From contig CP084166.1 in NCBI GenBank assembly GCA_021513695.1, forward strand, positions 672,001-736,000: a stretch of 64,000 bases of DNA, in the 5' to 3' direction. Positions 5,871-59,723 of the stretch are shown piece after piece. The notes under the pieces are model-generated. The model made no database searches. It was given only the letters and a program-made list of their open reading frames with translations, and had not been told where the DNA came from. The stretch comes from Candidatus Heimdallarchaeum aukensis (GTDB lineage Archaea; Asgardarchaeota; Heimdallarchaeia; Heimdallarchaeales; Heimdallarchaeaceae). The translations under genes were made by a program, and so were the position numbers. Position 1 is the first letter of the stretch. Each line of letters begins with the position of its first letter.

Positions 5871-6057
5871 GTAACAAATATGTTAAGGAGGTAATTCTTC
5901 TGTTTCATCTTTTTCCTTGTTAGCTAGTTGAAACATCAGGTAAACGCTAGTTACAATTATTACTACGATGAGAAGAAACAAGAAACTCCATAGTAATGCC
6001 GAAATCATTAAATCAATTTTACTATTCTGTTTATAAAGATTCTTAAAAAACGTTATA

Positions 6058-7528: not shown

Positions 7529-9352
7529 TCAATAATGTTTTTTTTCTCTTCTTTTGTTGATTATTGAAACTGAAATTACGATGAACATAAGAATTGAAAT
7601 GGTGCTCTCAAGGTTATAACTTACTGAGTTTGTGTTAGTCGTATCATCACCAGGTAAAGTAGTGTTGTATTTTATATCATAACCAGCAAACTCCATATAT
7701 TGTCTAGCAAGATAAATATCATAAATATACGGTTCAAGATCGCTATCAAAACCAATACATCCTTCTGGCATGGGTGATACACCAGGTGCTCCTTGTCCTT
7801 CTAAAATTTCGTTTACTATCATTTCACGTGGAACAGAATGGCTTATGGCTTTTCTAATGAACTTCGCTGCTTCTGCAGTTCCTAAAGGAGTAAGTTCTCC
7901 TGTCCCAAGGATAGGATGACGCATGTTGATTGCCATTTCTTGTGTAGATGTGATTTTTGTAAGGGCAAGATTAGTATCGATTCCCTCAAAATCTGAAAAA
8001 TGTAAACCATATTGAGAATCTACAATGTCAACTATCCCTTCTGTAAAAGCATCAATGGCCTTACTTTTACTAGGAACAAAGGTAAATATCAAACTATCTA
8101 GCAAATCATCATCTGTTAAGTTCCAATAAGGATTAGGATAAAGTATGACTGTACTTGAAGTAACATTAAAATCACTTACATTAAGCATAAATGGCCCACA
8201 ACTAGTTACAAAAGCTTGATCTAGAACATCCATGCTATAGCCATTTAAATTGATGTAATTTTGGACAAGATTCTTGTTAATTATACCATAGCTCAATAGA
8301 CTTAAACTAAAAGCATATCGTTTTTTGAAAGTAAACTGAATAGTGTCTTCATCTAAAGCTTTGATAGATTCGTTATTTTCAAAGTAAGTAGTTAAGGGGT
8401 CATATAATACGGAATCAACAGCAGGTGTCATGTATAACTCATAAGTGTAGTCAACATCATAAGCAGTTACAGGTTCTCCATTACTGAAGTAAGCATTAGG
8501 ATTAATATCCACTGTAATGGTTAATTTATCTTCTGATACACTGTAATTCTTTGCTATTACTGGCTCCATTAAACGCTTATTTTGACTTCGTTCAAAAAGT
8601 CCATAATAAACACAACTCATCCATAGAGCATCATAATACCATTCTTGAACAAAGATGTTATATTCTCTAAATTCTGCAGGTTGAGCATAAGTAATATTGT
8701 TCTTTAATGAATTTCTCCAATTTTCAGCTCGATGAGCACTATCACTTAACAATTGTGTATCAATTCCGCTAATTGACTTATTCAACGCATAGATCTCTCT
8801 TGGATACAATATTGTTATAGCTGGTAAATCATCATAAAGGATAGCTTGCAGTTCCTTTCCTTTAGCGATACGTTTAGTACCATCAAGTTCAGTAGTATAT
8901 TCTACTAGTTTTTCATCAAATTCTGGATTACTGTACTGGTAAACATTGTCTCCCGCGGGAACAATGCTTTCTGTATCAAAAAGACCTGTTGGATCCCAGT
9001 CTAATCCCCAGCTCCAACCTACAAAGAGTATATCATATCCTCCTTTATCATATGTAGGGATATAATCATAATAGCCTTCTTTACCAACAGGATAGAGCCA
9101 TGTTCTAGGAGCAATATTTCCCCAACCTGTTGTTTCATGGAAAGCTATACCTATACCTATTTTTGGTAACTCTTCTTCCATCAGGAATGCCCATTGATAT
9201 CTATAAGTACAACTAATTGGTGAAAGTAAATTAAGATAAAAGAGAGGAAGAGGATTTTCTTCTTCATCTGCATGTAGAGGAAGAACACTAGTTACGAAAA
9301 AAAAACAAATAACTAATGAGAGAAAAATCGTTTTTCTCTTTTTCATATTCAT
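7529..9352 (-). CDS. secreted solute-binding protein (ABC family-5, OppA/DppA-like) with C-terminal membrane anchor
   Basis: N-terminal signal peptide (KKRKTIFLSLVICFFFVTSVLP), about 550 aa binding-protein body with SCGPFML. C-terminal hydrophobic stretch plus KRREKKHY tail. Confidence 0.5.
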   Translation of the reverse strand: MNMKKRKTIFLSLVICFFFVTSVLPLHADEEENPLPLFYLNLLSPISCTYRYQWAFLMEEELPKIGIGIAFHETTGWGNIAPRTWLYPVGKEGYYDYIPTYDKGGYDILFVGWSWGLDWDPTGLFDTESIVPAGDNVYQYSNPEFDEKLVEYTTELDGTKRIAKGKELQAILYDDLPAITILYPREIYALNKSISGIDTQLLSDSAHRAENWRNSLKNNITYAQPAEFREYNIFVQEWYYDALWMSCVYYGLFERSQNKRLMEPVIAKNYSVSEDKLTITVDINPNAYFSNGEPVTAYDVDYTYELYMTPAVDSVLYDPLTTYFENNESIKALDEDTIQFTFKKRYAFSLSLLSYGIINKNLVQNYINLNGYSMDVLDQAFVTSCGPFMLNVSDFNVTSSTVILYPNPYWNLTDDDLLDSLIFTFVPSKSKAIDAFTEGIVDIVDSQYGLHFSDFEGIDTNLALTKITSTQEMAINMRHPILGTGELTPLGTAEAAKFIRKAISHSVPREMIVNEILEGQGAPGVSPMPEGCIGFDSDLEPYIYDIYLARQYMEFAGYDIKYNTTLPGDDTTNTNSVSYNLESTISILMFIVISVSIINKRREKKHY

Positions 9353-9473
9353 CTCCTTACTAGTAAAAATTAGTATAAAAAAGATATAAATGTTCCTTTT
9401 CTTTGAGATTTAGGTTTAGATTTTCTCATTTTCAGATATAGACCTAAAGATAATGTTTTTTCGTTTCCGAAAT

Positions 9474-9481
9474 CTTTTAAA
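9474..9481 (+). promoter_or_regulatory. TATA-box-like element (TTTTAAAT) about 28 nt upstream of the tldD start
   Basis: An AT box at archaeal BRE/TATA spacing relative to the ATG at 9506, suggesting a leaderless transcript. Confidence 0.3.
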
Positions 9482-9505
9482 TGTGTATGACCCTTTCTTT
9501 ACAGA

Positions 9506-10948
9506 ATGGAAGATATAATAAATTTAGCTCTAAAAGAAGCAGAATCAAAGAATGTTAACTTTGCAGAAGTTAGAATCTTTGGTTATGATAGCGAAGTAAT
9601 CGCTTTAAGGAATGCTGAAATTGATCAAATAGGAAGGGCTTACAATATAGGTTATGGAGTTAGAGTGATTAAGAACGGTGCATGGGGCTTTGCTAGTTCA
9701 GCAGATATTAGTAAAGAAAGGGTAAAAGAAGTAGTAAATAACGCAATAAAAGAAGCTGATGCCACAAGTAAAGTAATTAAAAGGCCAGTAGAATTATCAG
9801 AAGAACCAATAATTAAAGACACCTACAAAACTCCCTTTAAAATCGACCCTTTTGATGTTGATATTGAAGAGAAACTGGAGATTTTGAAAAAAGCTGATGG
9901 AATTATAGCAGAAAAAGGAGATGCAATTAAAGTAAGACAAACTGAAATGGGTTTTTACAAAGTATACCTGAATTATGGGAACACAGAGGGAACTAGAATA
10001 AAACAAGAAGAGCTTTTCACTGGAGCAAAAGCATCAGCCACTGCAATTGCTAACGATAATCAGAGAAGAGCGATTGGACTCTATGAAATGAGAGGATTTG
10101 AATATATTGATATGTATAATTTTGAGGAGAAATCAGAACAAGTAGCTCAAGAAGCTATTGTTCTTGCAACTGAAGCTGTAGCTCCTAAACAACAAAAAAC
10201 TGCTTTTATCTTGGAACCTTTTCAACTAGGATTAACTATTCATGAGAGTTGTGGACATCCTACAGAATTAGACAGAGTACTTGGTTGGGAAGCTGATTTT
10301 GCTGGAACAAGTTTTCTTACTTTGGATAAACTGGGTAAGAATTATCAATATGGTTCTGAAAAAGTTAACCTTGTTAATGATCCTACTATTCCTTATGTTC
10401 TCGGACATGAGAAATATGACCATGAAGGAGTAGAAACTAAACGATTCTATGTTGTCAAGAACGGTATTTTTAACGATTACCAAACTGATAGACAAACAGC
10501 TAAAATTATTGGTAAAGAACACAGCAACGGTAACGCTAGAATTGCTAGATATAACAGAGTTCCTTTAGTAAGAATGAGTAACTTGTATTTAGAAGCCGAC
10601 CCTGAAGGACCAAAAGATATTGATGAATTAATAGCAGAAACTAAAGAAGGAATCTATGGAATCGGTTGGAAGAGCCATTCTATCGATGATAAAAGAACTA
10701 ATTTTCAGTTTAGTGTTCAACTAGCTTATGAAATAAAAAATGGGGAATTAGCTATACCTCTAAAGAACACTATTTATCAAGCAGTTACCCCTGAATTCTG
10801 GGGAGGACTTGACTTAATGACTAAAGAGTGGAGAATCGACGGTCTTGGACCAAGTTGTGGTAAAGGAGCACCTCATACACAAACTATGTGGGTAAGCCAT
10901 GGAGGGCCTTATGCTCGTTTCCAAGGGGTGAATATCTTTTCAGGATAA
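9506..10948 (+). CDS. tldD: TldD metalloprotease
   Basis: 480 aa with the HESCGH zinc-binding motif and GxC...motifs of the TldD/PmbA family. Followed immediately by the paralogue. Confidence 0.85.
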   Translation: MEDIINLALKEAESKNVNFAEVRIFGYDSEVIALRNAEIDQIGRAYNIGYGVRVIKNGAWGFASSADISKERVKEVVNNAIKEADATSKVIKRPVELSEEPIIKDTYKTPFKIDPFDVDIEEKLEILKKADGIIAEKGDAIKVRQTEMGFYKVYLNYGNTEGTRIKQEELFTGAKASATAIANDNQRRAIGLYEMRGFEYIDMYNFEEKSEQVAQEAIVLATEAVAPKQQKTAFILEPFQLGLTIHESCGHPTELDRVLGWEADFAGTSFLTLDKLGKNYQYGSEKVNLVNDPTIPYVLGHEKYDHEGVETKRFYVVKNGIFNDYQTDRQTAKIIGKEHSNGNARIARYNRVPLVRMSNLYLEADPEGPKDIDELIAETKEGIYGIGWKSHSIDDKRTNFQFSVQLAYEIKNGELAIPLKNTIYQAVTPEFWGGLDLMTKEWRIDGLGPSCGKGAPHTQTMWVSHGGPYARFQGVNIFSG

Positions 10949-10949
10949 G

Positions 10950-12332
10950 GTGAAAAAAATGAGTCTAGAAGAACAAAAAAATCAAGTTTTGGAACTCACA
11001 GATTTAGCTCTTGAAAAAGCAAGAGCACTGAATTGTGATGCTTCTATAAATGTAAGTGTAGGAAAAGAGTATGCTACTCGTTTCTCTAACAGCGAGATAT
11101 TACAGAATTATGTAGATTTAAGAAGATTAATTGAGATAACAGTAGTTTATAAAGATAAACAACGTGCTTCTTCCACTACAAATACTTTTACTAAAGAAAA
11201 TATAATTAATCTGGTAGAATTTTTAGCTAAAGTTGCTAAAACTGTTTCTCCTGACCCTTCTTATCCTGGAATTGTAAAAGAAAAACACAGCTATCCTAGC
11301 TTAAAGTTAAACGATACTAAAGCTTCTCGAGTTAACCCTGATTATATTGCGGATAGAATTGCTGCAACTATTGACGCTGGTGAATCAATTGATAAGAGGA
11401 TAGGAGGAGTATCTGGAAACTTACTTTTCTCTAATGGTTTTGAATATCACAAATCTACTACAGGAAACGAGCTTTTCTATCCTTCTACGGTAATTGAATC
11501 AACCATCAATATCAACGCTCTCAGTGGTGGAGAAGAAAGTAGATCAAACAGTATTTTTGGAAGCAGGTTCTTTGATAAATTGCCACTAGAAAAAGAAGCA
11601 GAAGAAGTTGCAGAAAGAGCTTTAAGAGGATTAAATGCCAAATCTATTGAACCAGGTAATTATGAAGTAATACTTGACCACCAAGCAGTGAGTACAATAC
11701 TATTTTTTGTAGGGTATGCAACTTCTTCAAGATTGATAATTAACAGAGCAAGTTTCCTTAATGATAGAATTGGACAACAAGTTTTCGATGATGATCTATC
11801 TCTCATTAATGACCCACATAACCCTGAACATCTATCAGCTAGACCAATCGACGACGAGGGATTACCTACAACTAGGTTTCCAGTGATAGAAGAAGGAATT
11901 CTTAAGAATTACTCATATTCGAGACTAGACGCTGCAAGATTAGGAGCAAAAGCACAAGGAACTGGTTTTTCATTTATGGGTAATGCAATAGGATTTCCAT
12001 TTGCTGAAACAATCCAACCTGGAGACATGAAGGTAGAAGAGATGGTCGCTGATATAAAAGACGGATTACTAATAACAAACCTACATTATACTAACTTTGT
12101 AAATCCTCCTGTTGGAAGTATAACTGGAATGAGTAAAGATGGTTTATTTATAATTAAAAATGGAGAAATAGTTGGTTCTGCAAAGAACATGCGTTTCACA
12201 GATACAATTCCAAACATACTCAAAGATATTGATGTAGGAAAAGAACTTAAACAACCTGGAGGAAGGTTTGCAAATATAGTTGCTCCTATCAGAACAAAGA
12301 ACTTCAGATTTACAAGTAAAACAACTCACTAA
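10950..12332 (+). CDS. pmbA: PmbA/TldE family protein (TldD partner)
   Basis: 460 aa TldD/PmbA-family paralogue lacking HExxxH. Begins 2 nt after the tldD stop. Confidence 0.8.
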   Translation: MKKMSLEEQKNQVLELTDLALEKARALNCDASINVSVGKEYATRFSNSEILQNYVDLRRLIEITVVYKDKQRASSTTNTFTKENIINLVEFLAKVAKTVSPDPSYPGIVKEKHSYPSLKLNDTKASRVNPDYIADRIAATIDAGESIDKRIGGVSGNLLFSNGFEYHKSTTGNELFYPSTVIESTININALSGGEESRSNSIFGSRFFDKLPLEKEAEEVAERALRGLNAKSIEPGNYEVILDHQAVSTILFFVGYATSSRLIINRASFLNDRIGQQVFDDDLSLINDPHNPEHLSARPIDDEGLPTTRFPVIEEGILKNYSYSRLDAARLGAKAQGTGFSFMGNAIGFPFAETIQPGDMKVEEMVADIKDGLLITNLHYTNFVNPPVGSITGMSKDGLFIIKNGEIVGSAKNMRFTDTIPNILKDIDVGKELKQPGGRFANIVAPIRTKNFRFTSKTTH

Positions 12333-12448
12333 CTTCTACTTTTTTTCAATTTTTAACAGTAAAAATGCTGTGCGTATCATTTCTTTCTTTGAAAAACTTT
12401 TGAATTCAAGAACAACTAAGAAAAATCAGTCCAAAATAATCAACATTG

Positions 12449-12456
12449 TTTTATAT
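12449..12456 (+). promoter_or_regulatory. TATA-box-like element (TTTTATAT) about 26 nt upstream of the methyltransferase ATG
   Basis: Matches the archaeal TATA consensus at the spacing expected for a leaderless mRNA. Confidence 0.3.
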
Positions 12457-12477
12457 TGAAATAATTTTTTTGTTTTA

Positions 12478-13563
12478 ATGAAAATTAATCGTATTTACAA
12501 GAGAGATTGTATTGAAGGATTAAAGCAACTTCAAGAAAATTCAGTGGATTTAATATTTGCAGATCCACCTTATAATCTACAATTGCGTAACGAACTTTAT
12601 CGCCCTGATCAATCCAAAGTAGATGCGGTTAATGACAAATGGGATAGATTCTATTCTTTTGAAGAATATGACAATTTCTCTTTAAAATGGCTGAAAGAAT
12701 GCAGACGTGTATTGAAACCCACAGGCTCTATATGGGTAATAGGGACTTATCATAATATTTTCAGGATAGGTAAAATTATGCAAGATTTAGGTTTTTGGAT
12801 ACTAAACGACATAATTTGGGTAAAAACAAATCCTATGCCCAATTTTAAAGGAACAAGGTTCAATAACGCACATGAGACACTTATTTGGGCTGCTAAAGAA
12901 AAAAATGCAAAACAAACTTTTCATTACAAATCAATGAAGATTATGAATGATAATAAACAAATGCGAAGCGATTGGTATTTACCTATTTGTATTGGTAATG
13001 AAAGGTTAAAAAATAATGGAAAGAAGGTTCATTCTACTCAGAAACCTGAATCTCTCCTCTACCGTATAATTTTATCTTCTTCCAATGTTGGAGATCTAGT
13101 TTTAGACCCTTTTATGGGTACAGGAACAACTGCTGCTGTTGCTAAAAAACTGCGAAGGAATTACATCGGATTTGAGATTGATGATTATTACATTAGTGAA
13201 GCAGAAAAAAGAATTGCTAAAGTTTTACCTTTATCCGAAGATCTTTTAGATTACAAAATTGAAAAAAAACCTCCTAAAGTATCCTTTGGTATGCTAATTG
13301 AGAACAAATACATCAATCCGGGGGATTTTCTTTATTCCAGAGATTTAAAACACAAAGCAATTATTAAGGCTAATGCTTCAATTGAATATGAAGGGAAAGT
13401 GGGTTCTATTCATTCTATTAGTGCTTTTATTTTAGGAAAAAAAGCAAATAACGGTTGGGAATTCTGGTACTTAAAGAATAGCTCTGGTGAATTGGTATCT
13501 ATTGATTCACTAAGAAAAAAATTCGCAGTGAATGAATGGGGTGAAGAATGGAATGTCATCTAA
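12478..13563 (+). CDS. DNA methyltransferase, beta-class N6-adenine/N4-cytosine (DPPY before FxGxG), with approx 110-aa C-terminal extension
   Basis: Motif IV FADPPYNL near the N-terminus and motif I FMGTGTT downstream (beta permutation), as in the CcrM/M.RsrI group. C-terminal extra domain with GWEFWY. Confidence 0.85.
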   Translation: MKINRIYKRDCIEGLKQLQENSVDLIFADPPYNLQLRNELYRPDQSKVDAVNDKWDRFYSFEEYDNFSLKWLKECRRVLKPTGSIWVIGTYHNIFRIGKIMQDLGFWILNDIIWVKTNPMPNFKGTRFNNAHETLIWAAKEKNAKQTFHYKSMKIMNDNKQMRSDWYLPICIGNERLKNNGKKVHSTQKPESLLYRIILSSSNVGDLVLDPFMGTGTTAAVAKKLRRNYIGFEIDDYYISEAEKRIAKVLPLSEDLLDYKIEKKPPKVSFGMLIENKYINPGDFLYSRDLKHKAIIKANASIEYEGKVGSIHSISAFILGKKANNGWEFWYLKNSSGELVSIDSLRKKFAVNEWGEEWNVI

Positions 13564-13627
13564 AAAGAATAACCTTCAACTCACATTAAATGGAAAAGGT
13601 TATCATAGATAAGATCCATTTAGCTTT

Positions 13628-14938
13628 ATGAAGTTATCCAAGGACAAAGTCAACTATCTTATTTTTGAAGGTGGTGGAGGAAAAGGAGTTACTTATATTG
13701 GGGCTTTAGAAGCTCTTGAAGAATTAGGTATTCTCAGATTTACTGAAAAAAATATAGGAGAAAAGGTTGTTACTCATCTTGCTCCAAATTGCTTGAAAGG
13801 AGTAGCTGGAACTTCAGTTGGTTCACTTTTTGCTTTACTTGTATCTTTGGGCTACAACTCACAAGAAATAAGAGAATTATTAAAAAGCAACTTAACTGAC
13901 GAGTTTCTAGATACTATCGAATTTGGTTTGATTCAATCAATTTATAGCCAGCTTACTGAACAATCTTTTGTTAAAGACCCTCAACTAGAAATATCTACAA
14001 ATTTCGTTGAGAATAAATGGTCTTCTTTTCTTCAAAAACAAGAGAAATCTTTCAAAGATTTGTTTGCTTACCCTCTTAAAATGATCAAGCAAGCAAATTA
14101 TTATATCCTCTCAATGTTCATCAAATTTCTTCTTTATTATGAATCAAGAAAAATAAAGAATGAAAAACCATCTAACGAAACAGAAACTACATTTATCCCT
14201 ACATTACGAGACTTTGCGCAGTCAAAAACTCTAAAAAATGCTGTAGATAAAATTTTGGATAAACCAGCCGATGCTCTTAATAGTCTTAAATATGAATTTG
14301 GTTTTTTCCTTGGCAATGGGGCAAGAGAAGTTATAGATAGGTTAATTGAAGAAAGAACAGGAGTGAAAAACTGTACTTTCAATCAATTTTATGAAATTTT
14401 AGGAATTGATCTTGTTATTACTTCTTTTGATTTACAGACAAAACAAGTTGAATACTTAAGAAAAGATTCTAAATGGAAAAACCTTTGTGTGGCAGATGCA
14501 GTAAGAATGTCAATTTCTATTCCATTAGTCTTCAAACCTGTTGTTATTAACATGAAAGACGAGTTCATTCTTCCAATTACAGATGATGTTTCTTATGCTC
14601 ATTATTTCATTGATGGTGGAGCAGCAAACAATTTTCCCCTTCATGTTTTTGATGATAGAGAAGACAAACTAAATCCCTACGTTCTAGGATTTACTCTATC
14701 GTATAAAAGACAATATAATCCTTTTATTGAAGAAATTACTTTCTTTGAATATTTAGAAGATGTCTTCCTTTCAGTTCTTAAACAGACAACAAATTTACAA
14801 TTCAAAAAGAAAGAAGAACAAGAACAAGTGATAGAACTTGACCCAGAGTACATAAAAGTACTTGACTTTTCTTTTGATGAGATACCAGAAAAAACAATAC
14901 AAAAAGCAAAGAAGAAAACACTAGAATATTTCAAATGA
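13628..14938 (+). CDS. patatin-like phospholipase
   Basis: Oxyanion hole FEGGGGKGVTYIGAL, nucleophile elbow GTSVGS (GxSxG), and catalytic Asp in IDGGAANNFPL (DGG). There is a long insertion between GxSxG and DGG. Confidence 0.75.
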   Translation: MKLSKDKVNYLIFEGGGGKGVTYIGALEALEELGILRFTEKNIGEKVVTHLAPNCLKGVAGTSVGSLFALLVSLGYNSQEIRELLKSNLTDEFLDTIEFGLIQSIYSQLTEQSFVKDPQLEISTNFVENKWSSFLQKQEKSFKDLFAYPLKMIKQANYYILSMFIKFLLYYESRKIKNEKPSNETETTFIPTLRDFAQSKTLKNAVDKILDKPADALNSLKYEFGFFLGNGAREVIDRLIEERTGVKNCTFNQFYEILGIDLVITSFDLQTKQVEYLRKDSKWKNLCVADAVRMSISIPLVFKPVVINMKDEFILPITDDVSYAHYFIDGGAANNFPLHVFDDREDKLNPYVLGFTLSYKRQYNPFIEEITFFEYLEDVFLSVLKQTTNLQFKKKEEQEQVIELDPEYIKVLDFSFDEIPEKTIQKAKKKTLEYFK

Positions 14939-50562: not shown

Positions 50563-51477
50563 TCAAAAAGTATTTTTATTAGATATTTTTAATTTTTCTA
50601 GAATCAGTTTAGCAATGTTTTCGATTGTTTCTTGAATATCTTTAACAGATTTATCTTCTGAATCTATTTCAACAACAGTTTTTTTCTCAATCATCGCTTG
50701 AGTAAAGATGTGGTTATGCGGTATTTTCGCAATAACAGGAAAGTCTTTTTCAAATTTATCTTCAATCTCTTGAGTTATTTCCATGTTTATGTCACTTTTA
50801 TTGACTACTATAAAACCTGGAATATTGAACTGTTTTAAAAGCTCTAGAACTCTTTCTAAATCGTGTTTTCCAGAAATGGTTGGTTCACTAACAACTATAG
50901 CCAGATGGCTTCCAGATAAAGAACTTATAACCGGACAGCCAATACCTGGAGAGCCATCAATTAAAACCAATGATTTATTCTTTTCTTTTGCAACCTGTAA
51001 GGCTTTCTTTCTTACTTCTGCAACCAACAATCCGCTACTTTCTTCTCCAGGAACAAGTCTTGCATGAATCATTTTTCCAATTCTTGTATCAGAAACAAAA
51101 TAATTACCACTAACTCTTTCAATCATAGTTATTGCATCAACAGGACATACATGTTTGCATAATCCGCATCCTTCACAACGTACTATTTCAATATTTAATT
51201 CTTGATCTATTGCTCCATAACGACATGATTCATAACATTTCATACATTTTGTACATTTATCAAAATCTATTACGGCCTTTTTTGTTCCATAATAATCTGT
51301 TTTTTCTGATTTCTCAGGAGAGAATATAAGATACAAGTCAGCAGCGTCTACATCAGCATCTGCAAGAATAGAATAATTTTGAAGTAAGTAGGCTAAAGAA
51401 GAAATTAGTGAAGTTTTTCCAGTTCCACCCTTACCACTTATTACAGTTACTTGTTTTATATCTGTATTATCACTCAT
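50563..51477 (-). CDS. MinD/ParA-superfamily P-loop ATPase with inserted 2x[4Fe-4S] ferredoxin domain
   Basis: Deviant Walker A GKGGTGKTS. Two Cx2Cx2Cx3CP motifs (CTKCMKCYESC, CEGCGLCKHVCP). Confidence 0.8.
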   Translation of the reverse strand: MSDNTDIKQVTVISGKGGTGKTSLISSLAYLLQNYSILADADVDAADLYLIFSPEKSEKTDYYGTKKAVIDFDKCTKCMKCYESCRYGAIDQELNIEIVRCEGCGLCKHVCPVDAITMIERVSGNYFVSDTRIGKMIHARLVPGEESSGLLVAEVRKKALQVAKEKNKSLVLIDGSPGIGCPVISSLSGSHLAIVVSEPTISGKHDLERVLELLKQFNIPGFIVVNKSDINMEITQEIEDKFEKDFPVIAKIPHNHIFTQAMIEKKTVVEIDSEDKSVKDIQETIENIAKLILEKLKISNKNTF

Positions 51478-52315
51478 TTTTCACTTCCTCCGTAATCTCT
51501 TCTATCATCTGTTGAAATTTCTCTTTCCATTCTGGAAAAGTAGTTAGGAAATTATTACCAACAGAATAGGATTTAGCTATCTTCAGATCAAAAGGAATAC
51601 GTAAAAGAATAGGAATATTATTTTCTTTGCAATAGTTTTCTAATTCTTCATTGCCTATTCCCTCTTTATTTATTATCACTCCAAATTTTTTGTTTAACTG
51701 ATATAAGGTTTCTACTACAACTTTCATGTCAGAAAGACCAAATGGTGTGGGTTCTGCAACGACTATTACATAGTCAACATCTATTACTGTTTCTACCATA
51801 GGACAAGCTGACCCAGGAGGAGAATCAAATATCACATAATCCTTCTTTTTATCTACTTGTTCCTTAAGAGTAGAAATTATAGGTGTTGAGAGTTCTTCTC
51901 CAACTATAAGTTCACCATAGTCAAATCTTCTATTTCCTTTTATTCCTGAAAAGATTTTACCTAAACTCCTATTTTTTTCAGTTATTGCTTCTGTAGGACA
52001 AACAACAGAGCATACTCCACATCCATGACATATTCTATCAAAAACTAATATTTGATTCGGTAAATTAGCTAAAGCATTATATTCACAATTTTTCACACAT
52101 TCACCGCATAAAATGCACTTTGAGCTATCTATAACAGGAATAGGAATTTGTGCGTCTTTTACATGCTGTGTTCTTATATCCAAAAATAGTGAACAATTGG
52201 GTTCATCTACATCTGCATCGATTAATTGTACATTATCCAAGGATAAAAACAAACTTGTGGCAATGGTTGTTTTTCCAGTTCCACCTTTACCTGACACTAC
52301 AGCTATTGAAATCAC
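51470..52315 (-). CDS. MinD/ParA-superfamily P-loop ATPase with inserted 2x[4Fe-4S] ferredoxin domain (paralogue)
   Basis: GKGGTGKTT. CILCGECVKNC and CHGCGVCSVVCP. Overlaps the downstream paralogue by 8 nt. Confidence 0.8.
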   Translation of the reverse strand: MISIAVVSGKGGTGKTTIATSLFLSLDNVQLIDADVDEPNCSLFLDIRTQHVKDAQIPIPVIDSSKCILCGECVKNCEYNALANLPNQILVFDRICHGCGVCSVVCPTEAITEKNRSLGKIFSGIKGNRRFDYGELIVGEELSTPIISTLKEQVDKKKDYVIFDSPPGSACPMVETVIDVDYVIVVAEPTPFGLSDMKVVVETLYQLNKKFGVIINKEGIGNEELENYCKENNIPILLRIPFDLKIAKSYSVGNNFLTTFPEWKEKFQQMIEEITEEVKNE

Positions 52316-52381: not shown

Positions 52382-52756
52382 TTAATGGTCATGATCATGG
52401 TCATGTTCGTGGTGCCCACAACCATCAGTTTTTGAAGCTAGTCTCAGTTTTCCTTCTTTGAAATTGTCAATTACATTCTTTACAGTTCCTTCAGCACCGA
52501 CATATACCCCAAGATTGAGTTCTTCTGCTAGTTGAATAGCTCTTGAACCTATTCCTCCACAGAGAAGAGCATTGCTATGTTTAGCTAAAAATTCAGCAGG
52601 CATCCCTACACCGCCAAAATGATTGCTTTCATTGTTAATTATTTTAAGTTCATTTGTTTCTTCATCCCAAATTGCATATAATGGAGCTCTTCCAAAATGT
52701 GCTGATACAGGGGAATCCCACCCTTTATCGTCTTCTACAGGAATTGCATATCTCAT
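52382..52756 (-). CDS. dinitrogenase iron-molybdenum cofactor biosynthesis-family (NifX/NafY-like) protein with His-rich C-terminal tail
   Basis: Small alpha/beta NifX-like pattern (HFGRAP..., LLCGGIGSRA). Tail GCGHHEHDHDHDH. Confidence 0.7.
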   Translation of the reverse strand: MRYAIPVEDDKGWDSPVSAHFGRAPLYAIWDEETNELKIINNESNHFGGVGMPAEFLAKHSNALLCGGIGSRAIQLAEELNLGVYVGAEGTVKNVIDNFKEGKLRLASKTDGCGHHEHDHDHDH

Positions 52757-52767
52757 CTTTTTTCCTC

Positions 52768-53097
52768 CTAAACTTTTTTTAGTTCATTTTTTTCTAGTTT
52801 CTCTATCAAATTTTTCCAAGGTTCAACTTGACCTTCATAAATCGTGATATTGGAAGCTCGTAACACTTGTTCTGCATTAGGGCCTACTCTTGGAGCAATA
52901 ACTGCTTTTACCCCTTGAGAAACAAGAAATTCAGAAGCTTTAACTCCTGCTCCTCCTCTTGCCATAGCAGAGGGATTTTCATGATATTCATATTCTTTTG
53001 AATCTGAATCGTATATTAGATAATATAACGCTCTTCCAAATCTACTTGCCATTGAAGCATCTTCAGATCTTTCATCTATTGGTATTCCTATTTTCAT
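52768..53097 (-). CDS. NifX/NafY-like (dinitrogenase FeMo-cofactor family) protein
   Basis: MKIGIPIDE...SRFGRA...GVKAVIAPRVGPNA pattern. Confidence 0.7.
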   Translation of the reverse strand: MKIGIPIDERSEDASMASRFGRALYYLIYDSDSKEYEYHENPSAMARGGAGVKASEFLVSQGVKAVIAPRVGPNAEQVLRASNITIYEGQVEPWKNLIEKLEKNELKKV

Positions 53098-53402
53098 AAA
53101 ATCACTTCTTTATCTTTGTTTAATTCTGGTTCAGAGTCGAATTTTATAGCTTGATTTTCAAATAAAGCAGTAGCTATTTTTTTTCTTGCAATTCTTAAAT
53201 CTCTACTATAACTTGACTGAGATATACCCATCTTTTTTGCTGCTTCAACTTGCTTCAATCCCAAGTAATCAGCATAGTACAACACAGTTATTTCTTCTTT
53301 TGTTAGTATTTGTGTCTCCAGCTCCTTAAATGGTATAGCCACTGGCTTGAACACATGTTCGTTTACATCTATACAACAACGTTTTATCTTCCTCTGAACC
53401 AT
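53094..53402 (-). CDS. DUF134-family predicted DNA-binding protein
   Basis: VFKPVAIP...LTKEEITVLYYADYLGLKQVEAAKKMGISQSSYSRDLRIARKKIATAL matches the DUF134/UPF0251 pattern (sigma-70 region-4-like HTH). Confidence 0.6.
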   Translation of the reverse strand: MVQRKIKRCCIDVNEHVFKPVAIPFKELETQILTKEEITVLYYADYLGLKQVEAAKKMGISQSSYSRDLRIARKKIATALFENQAIKFDSEPELNKDKEVIL

Positions 53403-53535
53403 ACATCAGAAATTTTTCTAATTGATTATATAAACATTTAGTTATGAATAATTATTCACATATATGGTGATAAACACCTTTATTCTAAGAAGAAAAAGTC
53501 AAAAATTAGGGTTTAAAGCAAAATAGAAAGAAAAA

Positions 53536-53967
53536 TCAGTCAGTTATTTCTATCTCAATAAGGTTATGATTAATAATTGAATGAGCAATCCTTTTTCTAA
53601 GACCTTTAAGATAGCGCCAAACACTTGTTTGAGATATTCCTAATTTCTCGGCTATCTCTTTCTGAGTTAGCTCCTCTACATCAGCCATTTTTAAAATTTC
53701 TAATTCAAAACTGGATATAGCAAGAATATTATGAGGTTGATTTATTCTACGATTAATAGGGATAGAATAAGCTACAGGAGGACGCCCTTTCCTAAAATGT
53801 TTTCTACGTATGCCATGCGGACCATGCATTCCTCCTCTTCTCATTCCTCGCCTAGGTCCTCCGCCCATACCTCTTCTCGGAGGAAAGAGTTGATTATTAA
53901 GATTAGTTTTTTCTTCTTCTTTTCTCGTTTTTTCACCGTTTGATGGTTCGTCATTCATACTGTTCAC
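53536..53967 (-). CDS. DUF134-like HTH protein with Arg/Gly/Met-rich N-terminal low-complexity extension
   Basis: C-terminal ELEILKMADVEELTQKEIAEKLGISQTSVWRYLKGLRKRIAHSII. N-terminal PPRRGMGGGPRRGMRRGGMHGPHGIRRKHFRKGRPP. Confidence 0.5.
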   Translation of the reverse strand: MNSMNDEPSNGEKTRKEEEKTNLNNQLFPPRRGMGGGPRRGMRRGGMHGPHGIRRKHFRKGRPPVAYSIPINRRINQPHNILAISSFELEILKMADVEELTQKEIAEKLGISQTSVWRYLKGLRKRIAHSIINHNLIEIEITD

Positions 53968-54004
53968 TCTTTGAAAAAAGAAAAAAACAAATAAAAAAGT
54001 GTTT

Positions 54005-54355
54005 TTACTTATTCAATTTCTGTTTTTCTTCTTCTAGTAAAGATATTTCTTTTTGAAGATACTCTATTTGCTTTTCGATTAATGAAATCTCATAATCTAT
54101 GGCGTTTTCATTGGATGGTTTTCCATATGGATCCCATTGTGCATTTGTTGGTGGATTTTCTACTCCTTGATATTCAGGCATTGCCCACCAACCCCTTGGT
54201 CTGTCGGGGAAAAAGTCACAATTTGGACTTATCCATCTACGTCCTCCAAAACCTGCACCAAATCCTCTTCTAAATCCAAATCCTCGTCCATAACCGTATC
54301 CTCTTCCATACCCATATCCGGGGCCATATCCATATCTTCTATATCTGTATGCCAT
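54005..54355 (-). CDS. DUF5320-like low-complexity (Tyr/Gly/Arg-rich) protein with C-terminal coiled coil
   Basis: MAYRYRRYGYGPGYGYGRGYGYGRGFGFRRGFGAGFGGRRW followed by a Trp/Pro-containing linker and the heptad-rich ISLIEKQIEYLQKEISLLEEEKQKLNK. Confidence 0.5.
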   Translation of the reverse strand: MAYRYRRYGYGPGYGYGRGYGYGRGFGFRRGFGAGFGGRRWISPNCDFFPDRPRGWWAMPEYQGVENPPTNAQWDPYGKPSNENAIDYEISLIEKQIEYLQKEISLLEEEKQKLNK

Positions 54356-54514
54356 TTTTTCACCTCAAATGTTTTTGAGTTATTACTCAATATTAGTTAG
54401 ACTTTGCCGATATATAAAGTTTATGTTTTGCGTTATAATTCAAAAATTGTTTTCAGTAATTACACAACTACAAATTTAAAAAAGGTTGAATTGGAAATAA
54501 GTCGGTAGATAATA

Positions 54515-55792
54515 ATGGTAGACGTGAAACCTTTTCGAGGGATAAGATATACTGAAAAAGCAGGAGATATAGCAAATTTAATTGCACAGCCATATGATAA
54601 AATTGATGAAGAAATGCAGAAAGAATACTATGAAAAATCAGAATATAATTACTGTAGACTAACATTACCAATGGAAGAAGACAGATATAATGTTGCTAGA
54701 AAAAGATTAGAAGAATGGTTAGCTAATGAAATACTACAAAAAGATGAAGACCCAGCCTTTTATGTTTATTTCCAAGAATTCGAACTTTTCGGAAAAAAAT
54801 TTATTCGTAAAGGCTTTATTGGAGCATTAAGACTACACCCATTTGAAGAAAATATAGTTCTTCCTCATGAGAAGACTCACAAAGGACCAAAAATCGACAG
54901 ATTAAACATGCTAAAAACAACTAAACACACTTTAGAACCTGGATTCATCCTTTATTCTGATAATGATAAAGTAACGATTAGTATTTTTGAAGAGGTTGCC
55001 CAAAAAGAAAAACCAATAATTGATGTAGTCGACAGTTTAGGAGCCAGAAATAGAGTATGGAAACTTACTGATCCCGAAAAAATAAAAAGAGTTCAAGAAA
55101 TTTTCAAAGATCAACAGTTAGTAATTGCAGATGGACATCACCGGTATGAAACAGCTTGTACTTACAGAGACATGAGAAGGGAAGAAAAGAAAGATTGGGA
55201 CGAAAATGATGCTTTTAATTTTAGAATGACTTATTTAGTTCCTGTAGAAGATGAAGGTCTAGTAGTACTTGCTACACATAGATGTCTAGCAAAAGTAAAA
55301 GTTACACCAGAACAAGAAGAGATTTTTAAGAAGTACTTTGAGATAGAGGAAATATCCAAAGAAAAAATACCTGAATTTTTGGAGAAAAACCAAGACAATC
55401 ATGTCTTTGTTTATTATCAAGATGGCAAAGCTAAATCTATGATTATGAAGGATCCTACCACAATCAATGAATTTGTTAAAGATAGAAGTGAAGAATACAA
55501 GAATCTAGATGTCGTAATTCTTCGAGACATGATCTTTCAAGGAATTATGGGACTATCAGATTTAAAGATAGATGATGATATTTTCTACGAGAGATGGTGG
55601 AATGAAGCAATTCAGAAAGTTGATGAAGGAAAATATAAAGTTGTTTTCATTCTCAATCCTACTAGAGCAAAACAAGTTTTAGCTGTTGCCAAAAATCATG
55701 AAAGAATGCCTCAAAAATCTACAGACTTCTATCCAAAAATGATTAGTGGTCTTACAATGATGAGTTTAGAAGATGGAGAAAAATTGAACTAA
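54515..55792 (+). CDS. DUF1015-like protein (full-length copy)
   Basis: N-terminal VKPFRGIRY...AQPYDKIDEE pattern and about 425 aa. Weak family recognition. Confidence 0.45.
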   Translation: MVDVKPFRGIRYTEKAGDIANLIAQPYDKIDEEMQKEYYEKSEYNYCRLTLPMEEDRYNVARKRLEEWLANEILQKDEDPAFYVYFQEFELFGKKFIRKGFIGALRLHPFEENIVLPHEKTHKGPKIDRLNMLKTTKHTLEPGFILYSDNDKVTISIFEEVAQKEKPIIDVVDSLGARNRVWKLTDPEKIKRVQEIFKDQQLVIADGHHRYETACTYRDMRREEKKDWDENDAFNFRMTYLVPVEDEGLVVLATHRCLAKVKVTPEQEEIFKKYFEIEEISKEKIPEFLEKNQDNHVFVYYQDGKAKSMIMKDPTTINEFVKDRSEEYKNLDVVILRDMIFQGIMGLSDLKIDDDIFYERWWNEAIQKVDEGKYKVVFILNPTRAKQVLAVAKNHERMPQKSTDFYPKMISGLTMMSLEDGEKLN

Positions 55793-57260
55793 AGTTTTCT
55801 AAACTCTTTTTTCTTCATATTTTTAATCTACTTTAATTGCATATCTTTTTTCTGCTTCTTTAGAATATAAAGCCAAGAGTTTATCGAAATTCTCTTTTTC
55901 TAGATAACCATGTGCTGTCATCATTTCAGTGAATCTTTTCGGGAATTTTTGATAAGCTTCTTTAAGACTAAAGCCTTCTGCATATTTGAACTGTAATCTT
56001 TTTCTCTGTATTTCTTTTCCTATTTTTAGTAGTCTTCATCAGTTCTGTTGATTTTTAAGCTCTCTAAAGCTTGAATTGTTGTATTCATATCGTATACTCC
56101 TCTAGCAAAAAGGCAAATAACCATGCTGTTTAGAACGTTTCTCCACTCTTCTTCATTCATTAGAGAATTCATTCCTTGTTCAAAAGTTATTGGTTTATTC
56201 AGTACTTTTTGGTCCAGTGAATAACCAGCGTTGTCTAGATGACTGTGTCTTCCACCAACGAGAAAACCCATAATAGCATAATATCCAGTTCTATAACCTG
56301 CAGGTTCTAGTTTTGCTACTCTTATACCGAAATCATTTCCGCCATATTTCTCTACAAGAGCTTCTACTCCCTTTGAAGCTGTATAATAAAGTTCGCTTTC
56401 TTCTGTAGCTTTAGATATTTTTCCGATGATAGATAAGAAATCATCCACCCTACCAAATCTAATTAATTCTCCTTCTGTGTCTTTAGGACTAATTAAGTTT
56501 CTTTCATATGCTTCAGCTAACCAAGCCAGAACAACTCCTGTAGATATAGCGTCCATTCCTTCTTTCTCAATAGCTTCAATTAGTTTTAAGATATCTTTGG
56601 CATTACCTATCTTAAGATTTGAACCAAGAGCATAGATGAGTTCGTAATCGTAAGATACAGCAATAGAGTGAATGTCAGCTACAGTTCCTTTTTCCCATCT
56701 TTCTCTTAAGATTGCTAAATGAATACAACCGATTGGACAACCTCCGCAAGCTACTCTTTTGCCTAACAATTCTGAAGCGAAATATTCACCAGAGATATTT
56801 TCAGCTTCTTCAAAGTAGCTTTCTGCAAAGTTCTTAGTAGGTAAGGATTTTAACGCATTTAGAGGTAATATTCCCGCAGCTGTCCCAAGAACATGATATT
56901 TGGCCATTAAATTTGTTTCAGTAGTTTTCTTGTATATTTCTCTAAACACTCTTCTATATTGTTTATAATTAGTATTTGACTCCAAAGAAATGGGTTGATC
57001 TCCGATAATTGCGAAACCTTTAACATTCTTGCTTCCTAAAACTGCGCCTAGACCTGTTCTACCGAAATGCCTTGTTCTGTCTACAGTTGCACAAGCATAA
57101 GGAATTAATCTTTCTCCTGCTGGTCCAATTGTTACCACAGAACGATTACCAGGATGACCTATCTTTTCTCTTATAATTCTACCAGTTGTATTGGGAGACA
57201 TATACATTAGAGGTTTAGCATTAACAAATTGAACTCCATCTTCATAAGAAACAAAGTAGA
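54801..57260. repeat. tandem direct repeat, copy 1 (approx 2.46 kb)
   Basis: Sequence from 54801 is repeated from 57261 with a 2460/2461-nt offset. Verified at multiple points; differences listed in findings. Confidence 0.9.
55823..57260 (-). pseudogene. aldehyde:ferredoxin oxidoreductase, 5'-truncated and frameshifted duplicate copy
   Basis: Identical to the C-terminal approx 480 codons of the AOR gene at 58283-60085, except for a 1-nt deletion near 56034 (agtcttc versus agttcttc) that terminates the frame (…INRTDEDY*). The N-terminus is cut by the duplication junction at 57260. Confidence 0.6.
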
Positions 57261-58252
57261 TTATTCGTAAAGGCTTTATTGGAGCATTAAGACTACACCC
57301 ATTTGAAGAAAATATAGTTCTTCCTCATGAGAAGACTCACAAAGGACCAAAAATCGACAGATTAAACATGCTAAAAACAACTAAACACACTTTAGAACCT
57401 GGATTCATCCTTTATTCTGATAATGATAAAGTAACGATTAGTATTTTTGAAGAGGTTGCCCAAAAAGAAAAACCAATAATTGATGTAGTCGACAGTTTAG
57501 GAGCCAGAAATAGAGTATGGAAACTTACTCCTCCCGAAAAAATAAAAAGAGTTCAAGAAATTTTCAAAGATCAACAGTTAGTAATTGCAGATGGACATCA
57601 CCGGTATGAAACAGCTTGTACTTACAGAGACATGAGAAGGGAAGAAAAGAAAGATTGGGACGAAAATGATGCTTTTAATTTTAGAATGACTTATTTAGTT
57701 CCTGTAGAAGATGAAGGTCTAGTAGTACTTGCTACACATAGATGTCTAGCAAAAGTAAAAGTTACACCAGAACAAGAAGAGATTTTTAAGAAGTACTTTG
57801 AGATAGAGGAAATATCCAAAGAAAAAATACCTGAATTTTTGGAGAAAAACCAAGACAATCATGTCTTTGTTTATTATCAAGATGGCAAAGCTAAATCTAT
57901 GATTATGAAGGATCCTACCACAATCAATGAATTTGTTAAAGATAGAAGTGAAGAATACAAGAATCTAGATGTCGTAATTCTTCGAGACATGATCTTTCAA
58001 GGAATTATGGGACTATCAGATTTAAAGATAGATGATGATATTTTCTACGAGAGATGGTGGAATGAAGCAATTCAGAAAGTTGATGAAGGAAAATATAAAG
58101 TTGTTTTCATTCTCAATCCTACTAGAGCAAAACAAGTTTTAGCTGTTGCCAAAAATCATGAAAGAATGCCTCAAAAATCTACAGACTTCTATCCAAAAAT
58201 GATTAGTGGTCTTACAATGATGAGTTTAGAAGATGGAGAAAAATTGAACTAA
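57261..58252 (+). pseudogene. DUF1015-like protein, N-terminally truncated duplicate copy
   Basis: Identical to codons approx 96-425 of the gene at 54515-55792, except GA to CC at 57530-57531 (Asp to Pro). The first in-frame Met is at 57368. Confidence 0.55.
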
Positions 58253-59723
58253 AGTTTTCTAAACTCTTTTTTCTTCATATTTTTAATCTACTTTAATTGC
58301 ATATCTTTTTTCTGCTTCTTTAGAATATAAAGCCAAGAGTTTATCGAAATTCTCTTTTTCTAGATAACCATGTGCTGTCATCATTTCAGTGAATCTTTTC
58401 GGGAATTTTTGATAAGCTTCTTTAAGACTAAAGCCTTCTGCATATTTGAACTGTAATCTTTTTCTCTGTATTTCTTTTCCTATTTTTAGTAGTTCTTCAT
58501 CAGTTCTGTTGATTTTTAAGCTCTCTAAAGCTTGAATTGTTGTATTCATATCGTATACTCCTCTAGCAAAAAGGCAAATAACCATGCTGTTTAGAACGTT
58601 TCTCCACTCTTCTTCATTCATTAGAGAATTCATTCCTTGTTCAAAAGTTATTGGTTTATTCAGTACTTTTTGGTCCAGTGAATAACCAGCGTTGTCTAGA
58701 TGACTGTGTCTTCCACCAACGAGAAAACCCATAATAGCATAATATCCAGTTCTATAACCTGCAGGTTCTAGTTTTGCTACTCTTATACCGAAATCATTTC
58801 CGCCATATTTCTCTACAAGAGCTTCTACTCCCTTTGAAGCTGTATAATAAAGTTCGCTTTCTTCTGTAGCTTTAGATATTTTTCCGATGATAGATAAGAA
58901 ATCATCCACCCTACCAAATCTAATTAATTCTCCTTCTGTGTCTTTAGGACTAATTAAGTTTCTTTCATATGCTTCAGCTAACCAAGCCAGAACAACTCCT
59001 GTAGATATAGCGTCCATTCCTTCTTTCTCAATAGCTTCAATTAGTTTTAAGATATCTTTGGCATTACCTATCTTAAGATTTGAACCAAGAGCATAGATGA
59101 GTTCGTAATCGTAAGATACAGCAATAGAGTGAATGTCAGCTACAGTTCCTTTTTCCCATCTTTCTCTTAAGATTGCTAAATGAATACAACCGATTGGACA
59201 ACCTCCGCAAGCTACTCTTTTGCCTAACAATTCTGAAGCGAAATATTCACCAGAGATATTTTCAGCTTCTTCAAAGTAGCTTTCTGCAAAGTTCTTAGTA
59301 GGTAAGGATTTTAACGCATTTAGAGGTAATATTCCCGCAGCTGTCCCAAGAACATGATATTTGGCCATTAAATTTGTTTCAGTAGTTTTCTTGTATATTT
59401 CTCTAAACACTCTTCTATATTGTTTATAATTAGTATTTGACTCCAAAGAAATGGGTTGATCTCCGATAATTGCGAAACCTTTAACATTCTTGCTTCCTAA
59501 AACTGCGCCTAGACCTGTTCTACCGAAATGCCTTGTTCTGTCTACAGTTGCACAAGCATAAGGAATTAATCTTTCTCCTGCTGGTCCAATTGTTACCACA
59601 GAACGATTACCAGGATGACCTATCTTTTCTCTTATAATTCTACCAGTTGTATTGGGAGACATATACATTAGAGGTTTAGCATTAACAAATTGAACTCCAT
59701 CTTCATAAGAAACAAAGTAGATT
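57261..59723. repeat. tandem direct repeat, copy 2
   Basis: See copy 1. The distal junction at 59720-59723 reads gtagatt|ggttctgg, where the unique AOR 5' sequence resumes. Confidence 0.9.

Follow-up and report, generated by a model that had tools for sequence, protein, structure and literature searches.

Two adjacent genes with Arg/Gly-rich segments form a conserved Asgard gene pair

We analyzed a stretch of 64,000 nucleotides from the archaeon Candidatus Heimdallarchaeum aukensis (contig CP084166.1, positions 672,001 to 736,000; hereafter the window, from whose first letter all positions are counted) and focused on two adjacent minus-strand genes whose products carry low-complexity segments rich in glycine and arginine. 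The first gene of the pair (54005–54355) encodes a 116-residue protein related to the DUF5320 family, and the second (53536–53967) encodes a 143-residue DUF134 protein. Both had been noticed in a preliminary description made from the letters alone, whose quoted peptides match the two open reading frames (ORFs) exactly and whose coordinates agree with ours. Comparison with other genomes indicates that they belong together as an operon conserved in Asgard archaea: in every one of 23 Asgard loci, the DUF134 gene comes directly after the DUF5320-like gene and in the same orientation. The genes are separated by a T-rich spacer (53968–54004, minus strand) that may act as an attenuating oligo-T terminator. 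This spacer measures 37–70 nt across the Asgard loci (13 nt in one of them), and 22 of the 23 contain runs of at least five T.

The DUF5320-like protein starts MAYRYRRYGYGPGYGYGRGYGYGRGFGFRRGFGAGFGGRRW. Its first 41 residues (54233–54355, minus strand) form a head with a net charge of +9 that is composed of 36.6% Gly, 22% Arg, 19.5% Tyr, and 9.8% Phe. Together these four amino acids account for 36 of the 41 positions (88%), compared with a background of 19% in the 44 long ORFs of the window (binomial P ~4e-21); the highest fraction among 14,443 other 41-residue segments is 46%. The AlphaFold2 (AF2) model assigns a predicted local distance difference test (pLDDT) score below 50 to residues 1–44, which points to disorder. 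The full-length protein has a pI of 9.0 and contains one Cys, and its head is 37% Gly. Across the 29 loci that carry the SPNCD motif described below, heads of 28–46 residues share a constant composition. The DNA encoding the two low-complexity tracts of the pair has a GC content of 45% and 53%, compared with 30.6% for the window, indicating that the tracts keep their composition in spite of the mutational bias. At the nucleotide level, the head is a degenerate 18-bp repeat. Recent repeat slippage was rejected as its origin, since the 18-bp period shows only 75% matches and the orthologs keep the composition and not the register.

The best-conserved segment of the protein, SPNCDxxPDRPRGWWAMPxY, lies between the head and the C-terminal helix and had been overlooked previously. 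In the window it reads SPNCDFFPDRPRGWWAMPEY (residues 43–62; 54170–54229, minus strand) and harbors the sole Cys of the protein; C46, P50, P53, R54, and W56 are invariant. Residues 83–115 (54011–54109, minus strand) are modeled as a single amphipathic helix (pLDDT 84–92) that is acidic, with a pI of 4.5, and may form a coiled coil. The coiled coil proposed earlier is a single, confidently predicted helix; a PDB sequence search returned no solved relative and only weak, non-significant similarity to coiled-coil peptides. Residues 41–116 are 96% identical to the copy in Ca. Heimdallarchaeum endolithica PR6, where the gene order is the same (locus L010). Three overlapping ORFs (54229–54390, minus; 54137–54400, plus; 53731–53943, plus) were rejected as real genes because conserved protein families occupy the reported frames.

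The second protein contains PPRRGMGGGPRRGMRRGGMHGPHGIRR and spans 143 residues when read from the GTG at 53967, which differs from the ATG at 53958 (140 residues) chosen by gene callers. Forty-five homologs share its N-terminal head. An Arg/Gly-rich arm comprising residues 29–62 (53782–53883, minus strand; PPRRGMGGGPRRGMRRGGMHGPHGIRRKHFRKGR) follows an acidic leader and ends in KGRPPV; it is 29% Arg and 29% Gly (59% combined) with a charge of +12 (P ~3e-17). A corresponding tract of 13–32 residues, averaging 80% Gly plus Arg and a charge of +8.4 and anchored on [GK]R[PL][PSA]V, occurs in 45 of the 46 members of this RG-headed DUF134 subfamily. The preceding leader has a median length of 17 residues and is net negative in 69% of the members, and the subfamily contains essentially no Cys. 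The AF2 model places pLDDT values mostly below 50 at residues 1–54 and shows no secondary structure before residue 77.

C-terminal to the arm, the DUF134 protein folds into a predicted DNA-binding domain (residues 76–142; 53542–53742, minus strand; pLDDT 91–98) that consists of a strand, a three-helix unit with the helix-turn-helix (HTH) fold in the AF2 model, and a second strand. The earlier DUF134 assignment holds: residues 76–138 match PF02001 with 43.2 bits (threshold 27), covering model positions 22–89 of 98. The NCBIfam equivalog PRK04217 scores 48.4 bits, under its 115-bit cut-off, which makes the protein a member of the DUF134 family and not that equivalog. Foldseek comparison with the PDB yields sigma-70 region 4 and LuxR-type HTH domains as the top matches, with rmsd values of 0.7–0.9 Å and E-values that are non-significant because the domain is short; the best of them, region 4 of SigB/SigF, superimposes with an rmsd of 0.8 Å over ~48 residues. 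The PDB sequence search likewise gives only marginal sigma-factor matches (SigF, E = 5e-4). The protein resembles canonical members of the DUF134/UPF0251/COG1342 family in its above-threshold HTH, its basic N-terminal segment with an Arg-Pro step, and its linkage to NifX-like genes. It differs in that the canonical N-terminus MPRPxKxRxV, which often contains Cys, is replaced by an acidic leader, the RG tract, and RGRPPVAYP, with no Cys.

The first protein belongs to a widespread prokaryotic family

Pfam and NCBIfam scans of the 116-residue protein gave nothing significant; PF17253, the DUF5320 model, aligns with residues 11–105 at 13.0 bits (E = 0.25), short of its 27-bit gathering threshold. 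Among 53 homologs every named one is Asgard. A precomputed PF17253 match is present in only 1 of the 44 closest, and the most distant carry the domain. A profile built from the Asgard proteins and their closest relatives was searched against 1.84 billion cluster representatives and retrieved 104, nearly all of 80–125 residues. PF17253 is matched by 67 of the 81 distant representatives scanned (best E = 2e-26), and hhalign aligns the Asgard-only profile with the remainder over 108 columns at 99.6% probability (E = 8.5e-25), a score that low-complexity columns may inflate. From profile retrieval, the PF17253 matches, and the profile alignment, we assign the protein to a divergent Asgard subfamily of DUF5320; the label given to it in the preliminary description is therefore right at the superfamily level.

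A motif of the form C-x(1-4)-aromatic-P-x-[LR]-P-R-x-W is found in 120 of 153 family members, 88% of which contain exactly one Cys. The head that precedes this motif has a median length of 37 residues and is composed of 30% Gly, 16% Arg/Lys, 22% aromatic, and 1% acidic residues. By these sequence comparisons the family spans archaea and bacteria, and the Gly/Arg/aromatic tract, the single Cys, and the C-terminal helix are its hallmarks; all three are present in the window protein, as is the typical length of ~90–130 residues. The likeness to DUF5320 thus amounts to profile-level homology that includes the repeat tract, the conserved single Cys, and a helix of the type E-x-L-x-x-x-L-x-x-I-x-K-R-L-x-E-L, together with a common gene neighborhood of DUF134, NifX-like, and MinD/ferredoxin genes. 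Differences lie at the N-terminus and in the core. The signature MPxGDGTGPxGxGPxTGRGxGYC, present in family members P0151, P0177, P0178, and P0185, is absent from the window protein and all its Asgard orthologs, including its canonical opening MPxGDGTGPxGxGP. The core of the window protein, SPNCDxYPDRPRGWW, is specific to Asgard archaea, and a WDPYGxP segment is present in addition.

Some members depart from this architecture. P0137, P0152, P0182, and the product of positions 2352–2777 of locus L033 keep the head and a C-x-x-F-P-x-x-P-R-G-W-W core but end, where the C-terminal helix would be expected, in a Cys/His-rich segment (H-x-N-C-x-H-F-x-N-G-x-C-x-L-R-G...C-x-S-F) that is possibly a small metal-binding domain. 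A second small family, characterized by GLPGWxRFGFSPGWxG and a DUF5320-like C-terminal helix, is encoded between the DUF134 and DUF5320 genes at loci L008, L035, L041, L051, and L043; the L008 copy (5599–5994) has no precomputed Pfam match.

The preliminary description considered tracts of this kind eukaryote-like and rare in prokaryotes, and allowed that they might be lineage-specific noise. Along these lines, the heads could represent compositional noise, or a eukaryote-derived or ancestral RGG module with no specific prokaryotic role, in keeping with the drift in head length and exact sequence among orthologs and with a host that is an Asgard archaeon closely related to Ca. H. endolithica. 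We regard this as highly improbable, since conservation and phyletic spread contradict both noise and a eukaryotic origin. More than 20 species share the same composition despite a strong AT bias, and orthologs preserve it in the heads of both the DUF5320-like and the DUF134 genes. The tract is also encountered well outside the Asgard lineage, in Bathyarchaeia, DPANN, Thermoplasmata, Nitrososphaeria, Peptococcaceae, Deferribacteres, and Aerophobetes, so neither adjective fits what is a hallmark of a prokaryotic family. The profile search, whose library carries no organism names, returned only small DUF5320-type proteins apart from two long ones, P0172 (848 residues) and P0192 (434 residues), which match the repeat tract alone.

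Paired palindromes mark the putative promoter of the pair

Upstream of the first gene, two palindromes flank a promoter-like element. The distal copy, TGAATTATAACGCA on the minus strand (54429–54442), sits just upstream of a putative TATA box, TTTATATA (54411–54418, minus strand). The proximal copy, TGAGTAATAACTCA on the minus strand (54376–54389), coincides with the expected transcription start and precedes a GAGGTG ribosome-binding site. Asgard DUF5320-like genes share the upstream consensus TGART-WWWW-AYTCA, with two copies in 21 of the 23 loci at a spacing of 49–54 bp (mostly 53–54) and a TTTATATA or TTTAAATA element between them in orthologous loci. The palindrome has 44 matches in 2,990 nt upstream of the first gene versus 15 in 294 kb elsewhere, a 288-fold enrichment. 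Within the window, there are two exact matches versus 0.14 expected, and allowing up to one mismatch adds only a third site at 53445–53458. This third palindrome, TGAATAATTATTCA, is located 11 nt upstream of the TATA box (53427–53434) of the downstream operon, which begins with a second, canonical DUF134 gene followed by NifX-like genes. The identical 14-mer occupies the same place in L003, L009, L010, L023, L024, and L025, and 7 of the 15 matches found elsewhere are this sequence in the promoter of the canonical DUF134/NifX operon.

Other lineages keep this layout with another half-site. In Bathyarchaeia, Nitrososphaeria, and related loci, the half-site GTGCA-N3-KCAC has 19 matches in 1,485 nt versus 12 in 86.7 kb, a 92-fold enrichment. 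It appears in the divergent DUF134/DUF5320 promoters of L034, L036, L040, L046, L047, L041, L051, L042, and L043 in one to three copies, with two or three in seven of these nine loci, where it flanks a TATA-like element. Iainarchaeum loci have TGAACATATGTTCA upstream of DUF134. The DUF134 recognition helix reads SQTSVWRYL in Asgard archaea, SRGTIWRLL in Bathyarchaeia and relatives, and SRPTFSRVL in Iainarchaeum; across these three lineage groups, the half-site changes together with the helix. Palindrome enrichment and this covariation provide good indirect evidence, drawn from sequence comparison, that DUF134 is a local regulator and autoregulator with the DUF5320 gene as its primary target. 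The suggestion that the two proteins form a functional pair is thereby strengthened, as a single conserved promoter/operator region precedes genes that are invariably adjacent and co-oriented. A scan for sigma-70 promoters and intrinsic terminators found nothing above shuffled expectation, as anticipated for an archaeal host.

The pair adjoins genes of an iron–sulfur cluster system

On the minus strand, the DUF5320-like and RG-headed DUF134 genes are followed by a canonical DUF134 gene, two NifX-like genes, the second with a His-rich end, and two MinD/ferredoxin genes. The canonical DUF134 gene (53094–53402), the first of the downstream operon, encodes 102 residues with an N-terminal CC and no RG tract and matches PF02001 with 48.9 bits. 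The NifX-like genes (52382–53097; Nitro_FeMo-Co, IPR003731-type) match PF02579 with E-values of 8e-19 and 2e-16; their products have pI values of 5.9 and 5.3, and Gly makes up 5% and 12% of the last 40 residues, respectively. The second of these (52382–52756) terminates in the Cys/His-rich sequence GCGHHEHDHDHDH, which suggests a metal-binding tail unlike the Gly/Arg type. Farther downstream (50563–52315), two genes encode MinD/CbiA-type P-loop ATPases with inserted 2x[4Fe-4S] ferredoxin domains (Pfam CbiA/ParA and Fer4) that resemble Orp3 and Orp4.

NifX/MinD-ferredoxin genes follow the pair in 7 of the 23 Asgard loci, in one case beyond an inserted MoxR/VWA block. In this locus (L003, Heimdallarchaeaceae, 8938–14756), a MoxR-type AAA ATPase, an 864-residue VWA protein, and a 745-residue unknown protein are encoded between the pair and the canonical DUF134/NifX cluster. 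Our non-Asgard set comprises 22 loci from Bathyarchaeia, Iainarchaeum, Woesearchaeota, Thermoplasmata, Nitrososphaeria, Helarchaeota, Peptococcaceae, Deferribacteres, and Aerophobetes. A DUF134 gene is found no more than 1 kb from the DUF5320 gene in 15 of them, and NifX and/or MinD-ferredoxin genes in 19.

Near the pair, aldehyde:ferredoxin oxidoreductase genes occur both in the window (56026–57207, minus strand, a truncated ORF) and in L003 (1–704). The truncated ORF and the 3′ part of a DUF1015 gene lie in a 2.46-kb unit that is tandemly duplicated with ~99.9% identity (54801–57260 and 57261–59720). No such self-repeat was detected in the 12-kb L010 of Ca. H. endolithica, which covers ~5.9 kb upstream of the pair; the duplication is either strain-specific or an assembly artifact.

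The low-complexity module is fused to regulators and to NifX domains

The preliminary description had raised fusion or fission as a possible explanation for the two similar tracts, and such events are indeed seen elsewhere. DUF134::DUF5320 fusions carrying both PF02001 and PF17253 exist in other archaea and in bacteria (Woesearchaeota, Methanosarcinaceae, and others). They were retrieved with an artificial chimera that joins an Iainarchaeum DUF134 protein to an M. mazei RG fragment taken from Table S7 of PMC7565180; the retrieved fusions are natural and were checked by sequence. The combination is already present, unremarked, in that same table. In the fused proteins, which are numerous, a C-terminal MPxGDGTGPxGxGP...GRG segment is annotated as PF17253 and is often followed by a zinc ribbon. 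Four examples (P0209, P0250, P0221, and P0204) combine DUF134, the GDGTGP/GRG segment, and a zinc-ribbon-like C-x-C-P-x-C-G...C-P-K-C.

A NifX::DUF5320 fusion was identified once, in the Nitrososphaeria locus L043 (PF02579, 3.4e-26; PF17253, 6.4e-12). Additionally, NifX-like proteins with GRG/aromatic tails are encoded next to DUF5320 genes in Iainarchaeum, Woesearchaeota, and Bathyarchaeota (L038, L044, L048, and L034). These tailed proteins qualify for the IssA clade as published, with a pI of at least 9, fewer than five Cys, and a disordered terminal segment containing at least 20% Gly, for which the last 40 residues were scored. The low-complexity module thus exists in free form alongside a helix and as a fusion partner of either a regulator or a NifX/IssA domain.

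This distribution bears on two further interpretations of the pair. In the first, the DUF5320-like protein is an anti-factor of DUF134, comparable to an anti-sigma factor acting on region 4, whose acidic helix would hold the RG arm or the HTH and whose Cys/Trp core would act as a sensor. The DUF134 fold is indeed closest to sigma region 4, which anti-sigma factors commonly hold, and the gene order in all 23 loci implies strict co-transcription. The charges are complementary as well, with a helix of pI 4.5 facing an arm of +12 and an acidic DUF134 leader facing a head of +9, and the DUF134::DUF5320 fusions suggest a joint function. Those fusions, however, keep the Gly/Arg part and usually lose the helix that would do the holding, and DUF5320 is fused to NifX too. 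We judge an anti-factor role unlikely, although it is compatible with the explanation that we favor below and not exclusive of it.

In the second interpretation, both tracts bind DNA or RNA, for instance G-quadruplexes, and the DUF5320-like protein serves as an oligomeric nucleoid- or RNA-binding partner or as a co-regulator of DUF134, possibly within condensates. RG/RGG tracts are well known for binding nucleic acids, both heads carry a strong positive charge, and fusions of the module to the DUF134 HTH domain occur in many lineages. Moreover, the RG motif of the M. mazei proteins is listed once in the literature, in a G-quadruplex survey in which a FIMO scan of Methanosarcina mazei for the quadruplex-binding RG motif placed DUF134 and DUF5320 proteins among the four top matches (PMC7565180). 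Against this, the same module is joined to NifX-like cluster-binding domains, which have no evident need of nucleic acid, and the family is tied to NifX/MinD-ferredoxin genes in 19 of the 22 non-Asgard loci. Nucleic-acid binding also leaves the invariant single Cys and the Cys/His-rich variants unexplained, and a GC content of 30.6% should give few G-quadruplexes. As an account of the whole pair, we consider it a serious possibility that nonetheless falls well short of probable; for the DUF134 arm by itself, nucleic-acid binding may well hold.

A candidate iron–sulfur scaffold under probable local control

The explanation that we favor, tentatively and with somewhat less than even confidence, is that DUF134 autoregulates the pair and that the DUF5320-like protein is the regulated effector, a cationic-aromatic iron–sulfur (Fe–S) scaffold linked to an ORP/IssA-like metal–sulfur cluster system. 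A dimer of one of the DUF134 proteins, acting as either repressor or activator, would bind TGART-N4-AYTCA. The two operator copies, about five helical turns apart, would lie on either side of the TATA box and overlap the expected transcription start, and the third would adjoin the TATA box of the downstream operon with its DUF134, two NifX-like, and two MinD/ferredoxin genes. The presence of operator copies at both promoters suggests that the pair is autoregulated and co-regulated with the metal–sulfur cluster system. Additional contacts to AT-rich DNA are probably made by the RG arm, which closes with an RGRP reminiscent of the core of an AT-hook, and the T-rich spacer might attenuate transcription into the regulator gene such that the product of the first gene accumulates in excess.

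On the effector side, the acidic C-terminal helix probably oligomerizes the DUF5320-like protein, and the head may act like an IssA tail supplied in trans. The resulting oligomeric, cationic-aromatic scaffold could bind anionic Fe–S (thioferrate-like) or thiometallate material, which the tail-less NifX-like and MinD/ferredoxin proteins would then handle. Since both heads are cationic, they should not attract each other directly, and their co-assembly would need a shared polyanion such as DNA, RNA, or an inorganic polymer. The genomic context, with its NifX-like and MinD/ferredoxin genes and IssA-type tails, points to an inorganic Fe–S polyanion as the ligand at least as strongly as to nucleic acid, and the Cys/His-rich C-terminal variants (P0137, P0152, and P0182) also point to metal chemistry. 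We put the Fe–S polyanion mechanism forward as a testable hypothesis and not as a result.

Several considerations weigh against this explanation. The searchable literature contains no functional study of DUF5320, DUF134/UPF0251/COG1342, or DVU2107, only passing mentions. Thioferrate binding by the IssA tail is itself a proposal that awaits demonstration (PMC5524996), and the likeness between the head and that tail rests on the published description and on the IssA-type tails found here, not on an alignment. The Asgard DUF134 protein has no Cys and hence no obvious sensor ligand, and the RG tracts and RGRP motif fit plain DNA binding equally well. The link between pair and cluster is not obligatory, as 16 of the 23 Asgard pairs have neither NifX nor MinD-ferredoxin genes within ~6 kb. 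Finally, the correspondence between recognition helix and half-site is drawn from three lineage groups, and sequence is the only source for the promoter elements, the transcription start, and the terminator.

A bolder form of the Fe–S scaffold explanation, which we think improbable as it stands, would treat the Gly/Arg/aromatic tract as a portable module for binding an inorganic polyanion, such as thioferrate or a different Fe–S or thiometallate polymer, that is common to the storage or scaffold domain of NifX/IssA, the oligomeric coiled-coil protein DUF5320, and the transcription factor DUF134. In Asgard archaea, the ligand would compete with operator DNA for the RG arm, allowing an Fe–S polymer to induce its own scaffold, and the scaffold and NifX would condense the mineral into protein–mineral particles. 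If true, prokaryotes would possess a mineral-templated equivalent of RGG-driven condensates that includes its own transcriptional feedback.

Comparison with known systems

Both families are catalogued already as uncharacterized DUFs. In the searchable literature, we found no account of the Asgard subfamily, of an RG arm placed at the N-terminus of DUF134, of the strict pairing of the genes or its operator, or of the NifX and DUF134 fusions taken together. The two families occur widely among anaerobic archaea and bacteria, and the present locus offers a defined operator, a candidate regulator, and a strict effector/regulator pair for their study.

Eukaryotic RG/RGG and YG domains of the FUS/hnRNP type resemble the two heads in composition and predicted disorder, a likeness that is compositional only: Pfam and profile searches identified no eukaryotic homolog, no RRM or KH domain, and no other eukaryote-type partner domain. 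At the level of a short motif, the DUF134 arm can be compared with the AT-hook, which consists of an R-G-R-P core with basic flanks and contacts the minor groove of AT-rich DNA. The (R/K)GRP that closes the arm is conserved, reading KGRPP in the window protein and RGRPP in the nearly invariant subfamily consensus, and the spacer of the operator is WWWW; the comparison is confined to this motif, with the AT-hook consensus taken from general knowledge, and serves as a lead.

The ORP complex of Desulfovibrio vulgaris comprises Orp3, Orp4, Orp5, Orp8, and Orp9, of which Orp3, Orp4, Orp5, and Orp8 represent the MinD-type ATPases with ferredoxin inserts and the single-domain NifX-like proteins (PMC6345978). 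The downstream cluster of the window is similar in combining two paralogous MinD-type ATPases with ferredoxin inserts and single-domain NifX-like proteins in one anaerobe-specific cluster. It differs in having no Mrp::NifX (MrpORP/Orp9) gene, as the proteins tested score 25–57 bits against the 450-bit cut-off of NF041136, and in its proposed regulation by DUF134, whereas a sigma-54 activator serves the ORP genes. The account of ORP in PMC6345978 makes no mention of DUF5320 or DUF134 components.

A parallel to the head is found in IssA, the thioferrate iron–sulfur storage protein of Pyrococcus furiosus, in which a NifX-like domain is followed by a disordered, cationic, aromatic, Gly-rich tail of 70 residues that contains the only Cys and is proposed to wrap anionic thioferrate (PMC5524996). 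The DUF5320-like protein shares with it a disordered cationic, aromatic, Gly-rich segment, a single Cys, and an association with the IPR003731/NifX-like domain, and homologous clusters contain IssA-type tailed NifX proteins and the one NifX::DUF5320 fusion. In the window, by contrast, the segment is N-terminal and resides on a separate, putatively coiled-coil protein and not on a NifX domain: neither of the two RG/YG proteins matches PF02579 in Pfam scans, the domain being encoded by the neighboring genes at 52382–53097, whose acidic, tail-less products fall outside the IssA clade. If the head binds no thioferrate-like material, an attractive but unsupported eukaryote-like reading of these proteins has still been corrected. 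If it does, disordered RG/aromatic regions would have a long-standing role in prokaryotes that has nothing to do with RNA, and the storage principle of IssA would reach beyond Thermococcales to many anaerobes, among them the archaea most closely related to eukaryotes. The domain fusions tie the low-complexity module to NifX/IssA-type iron–sulfur storage proteins.

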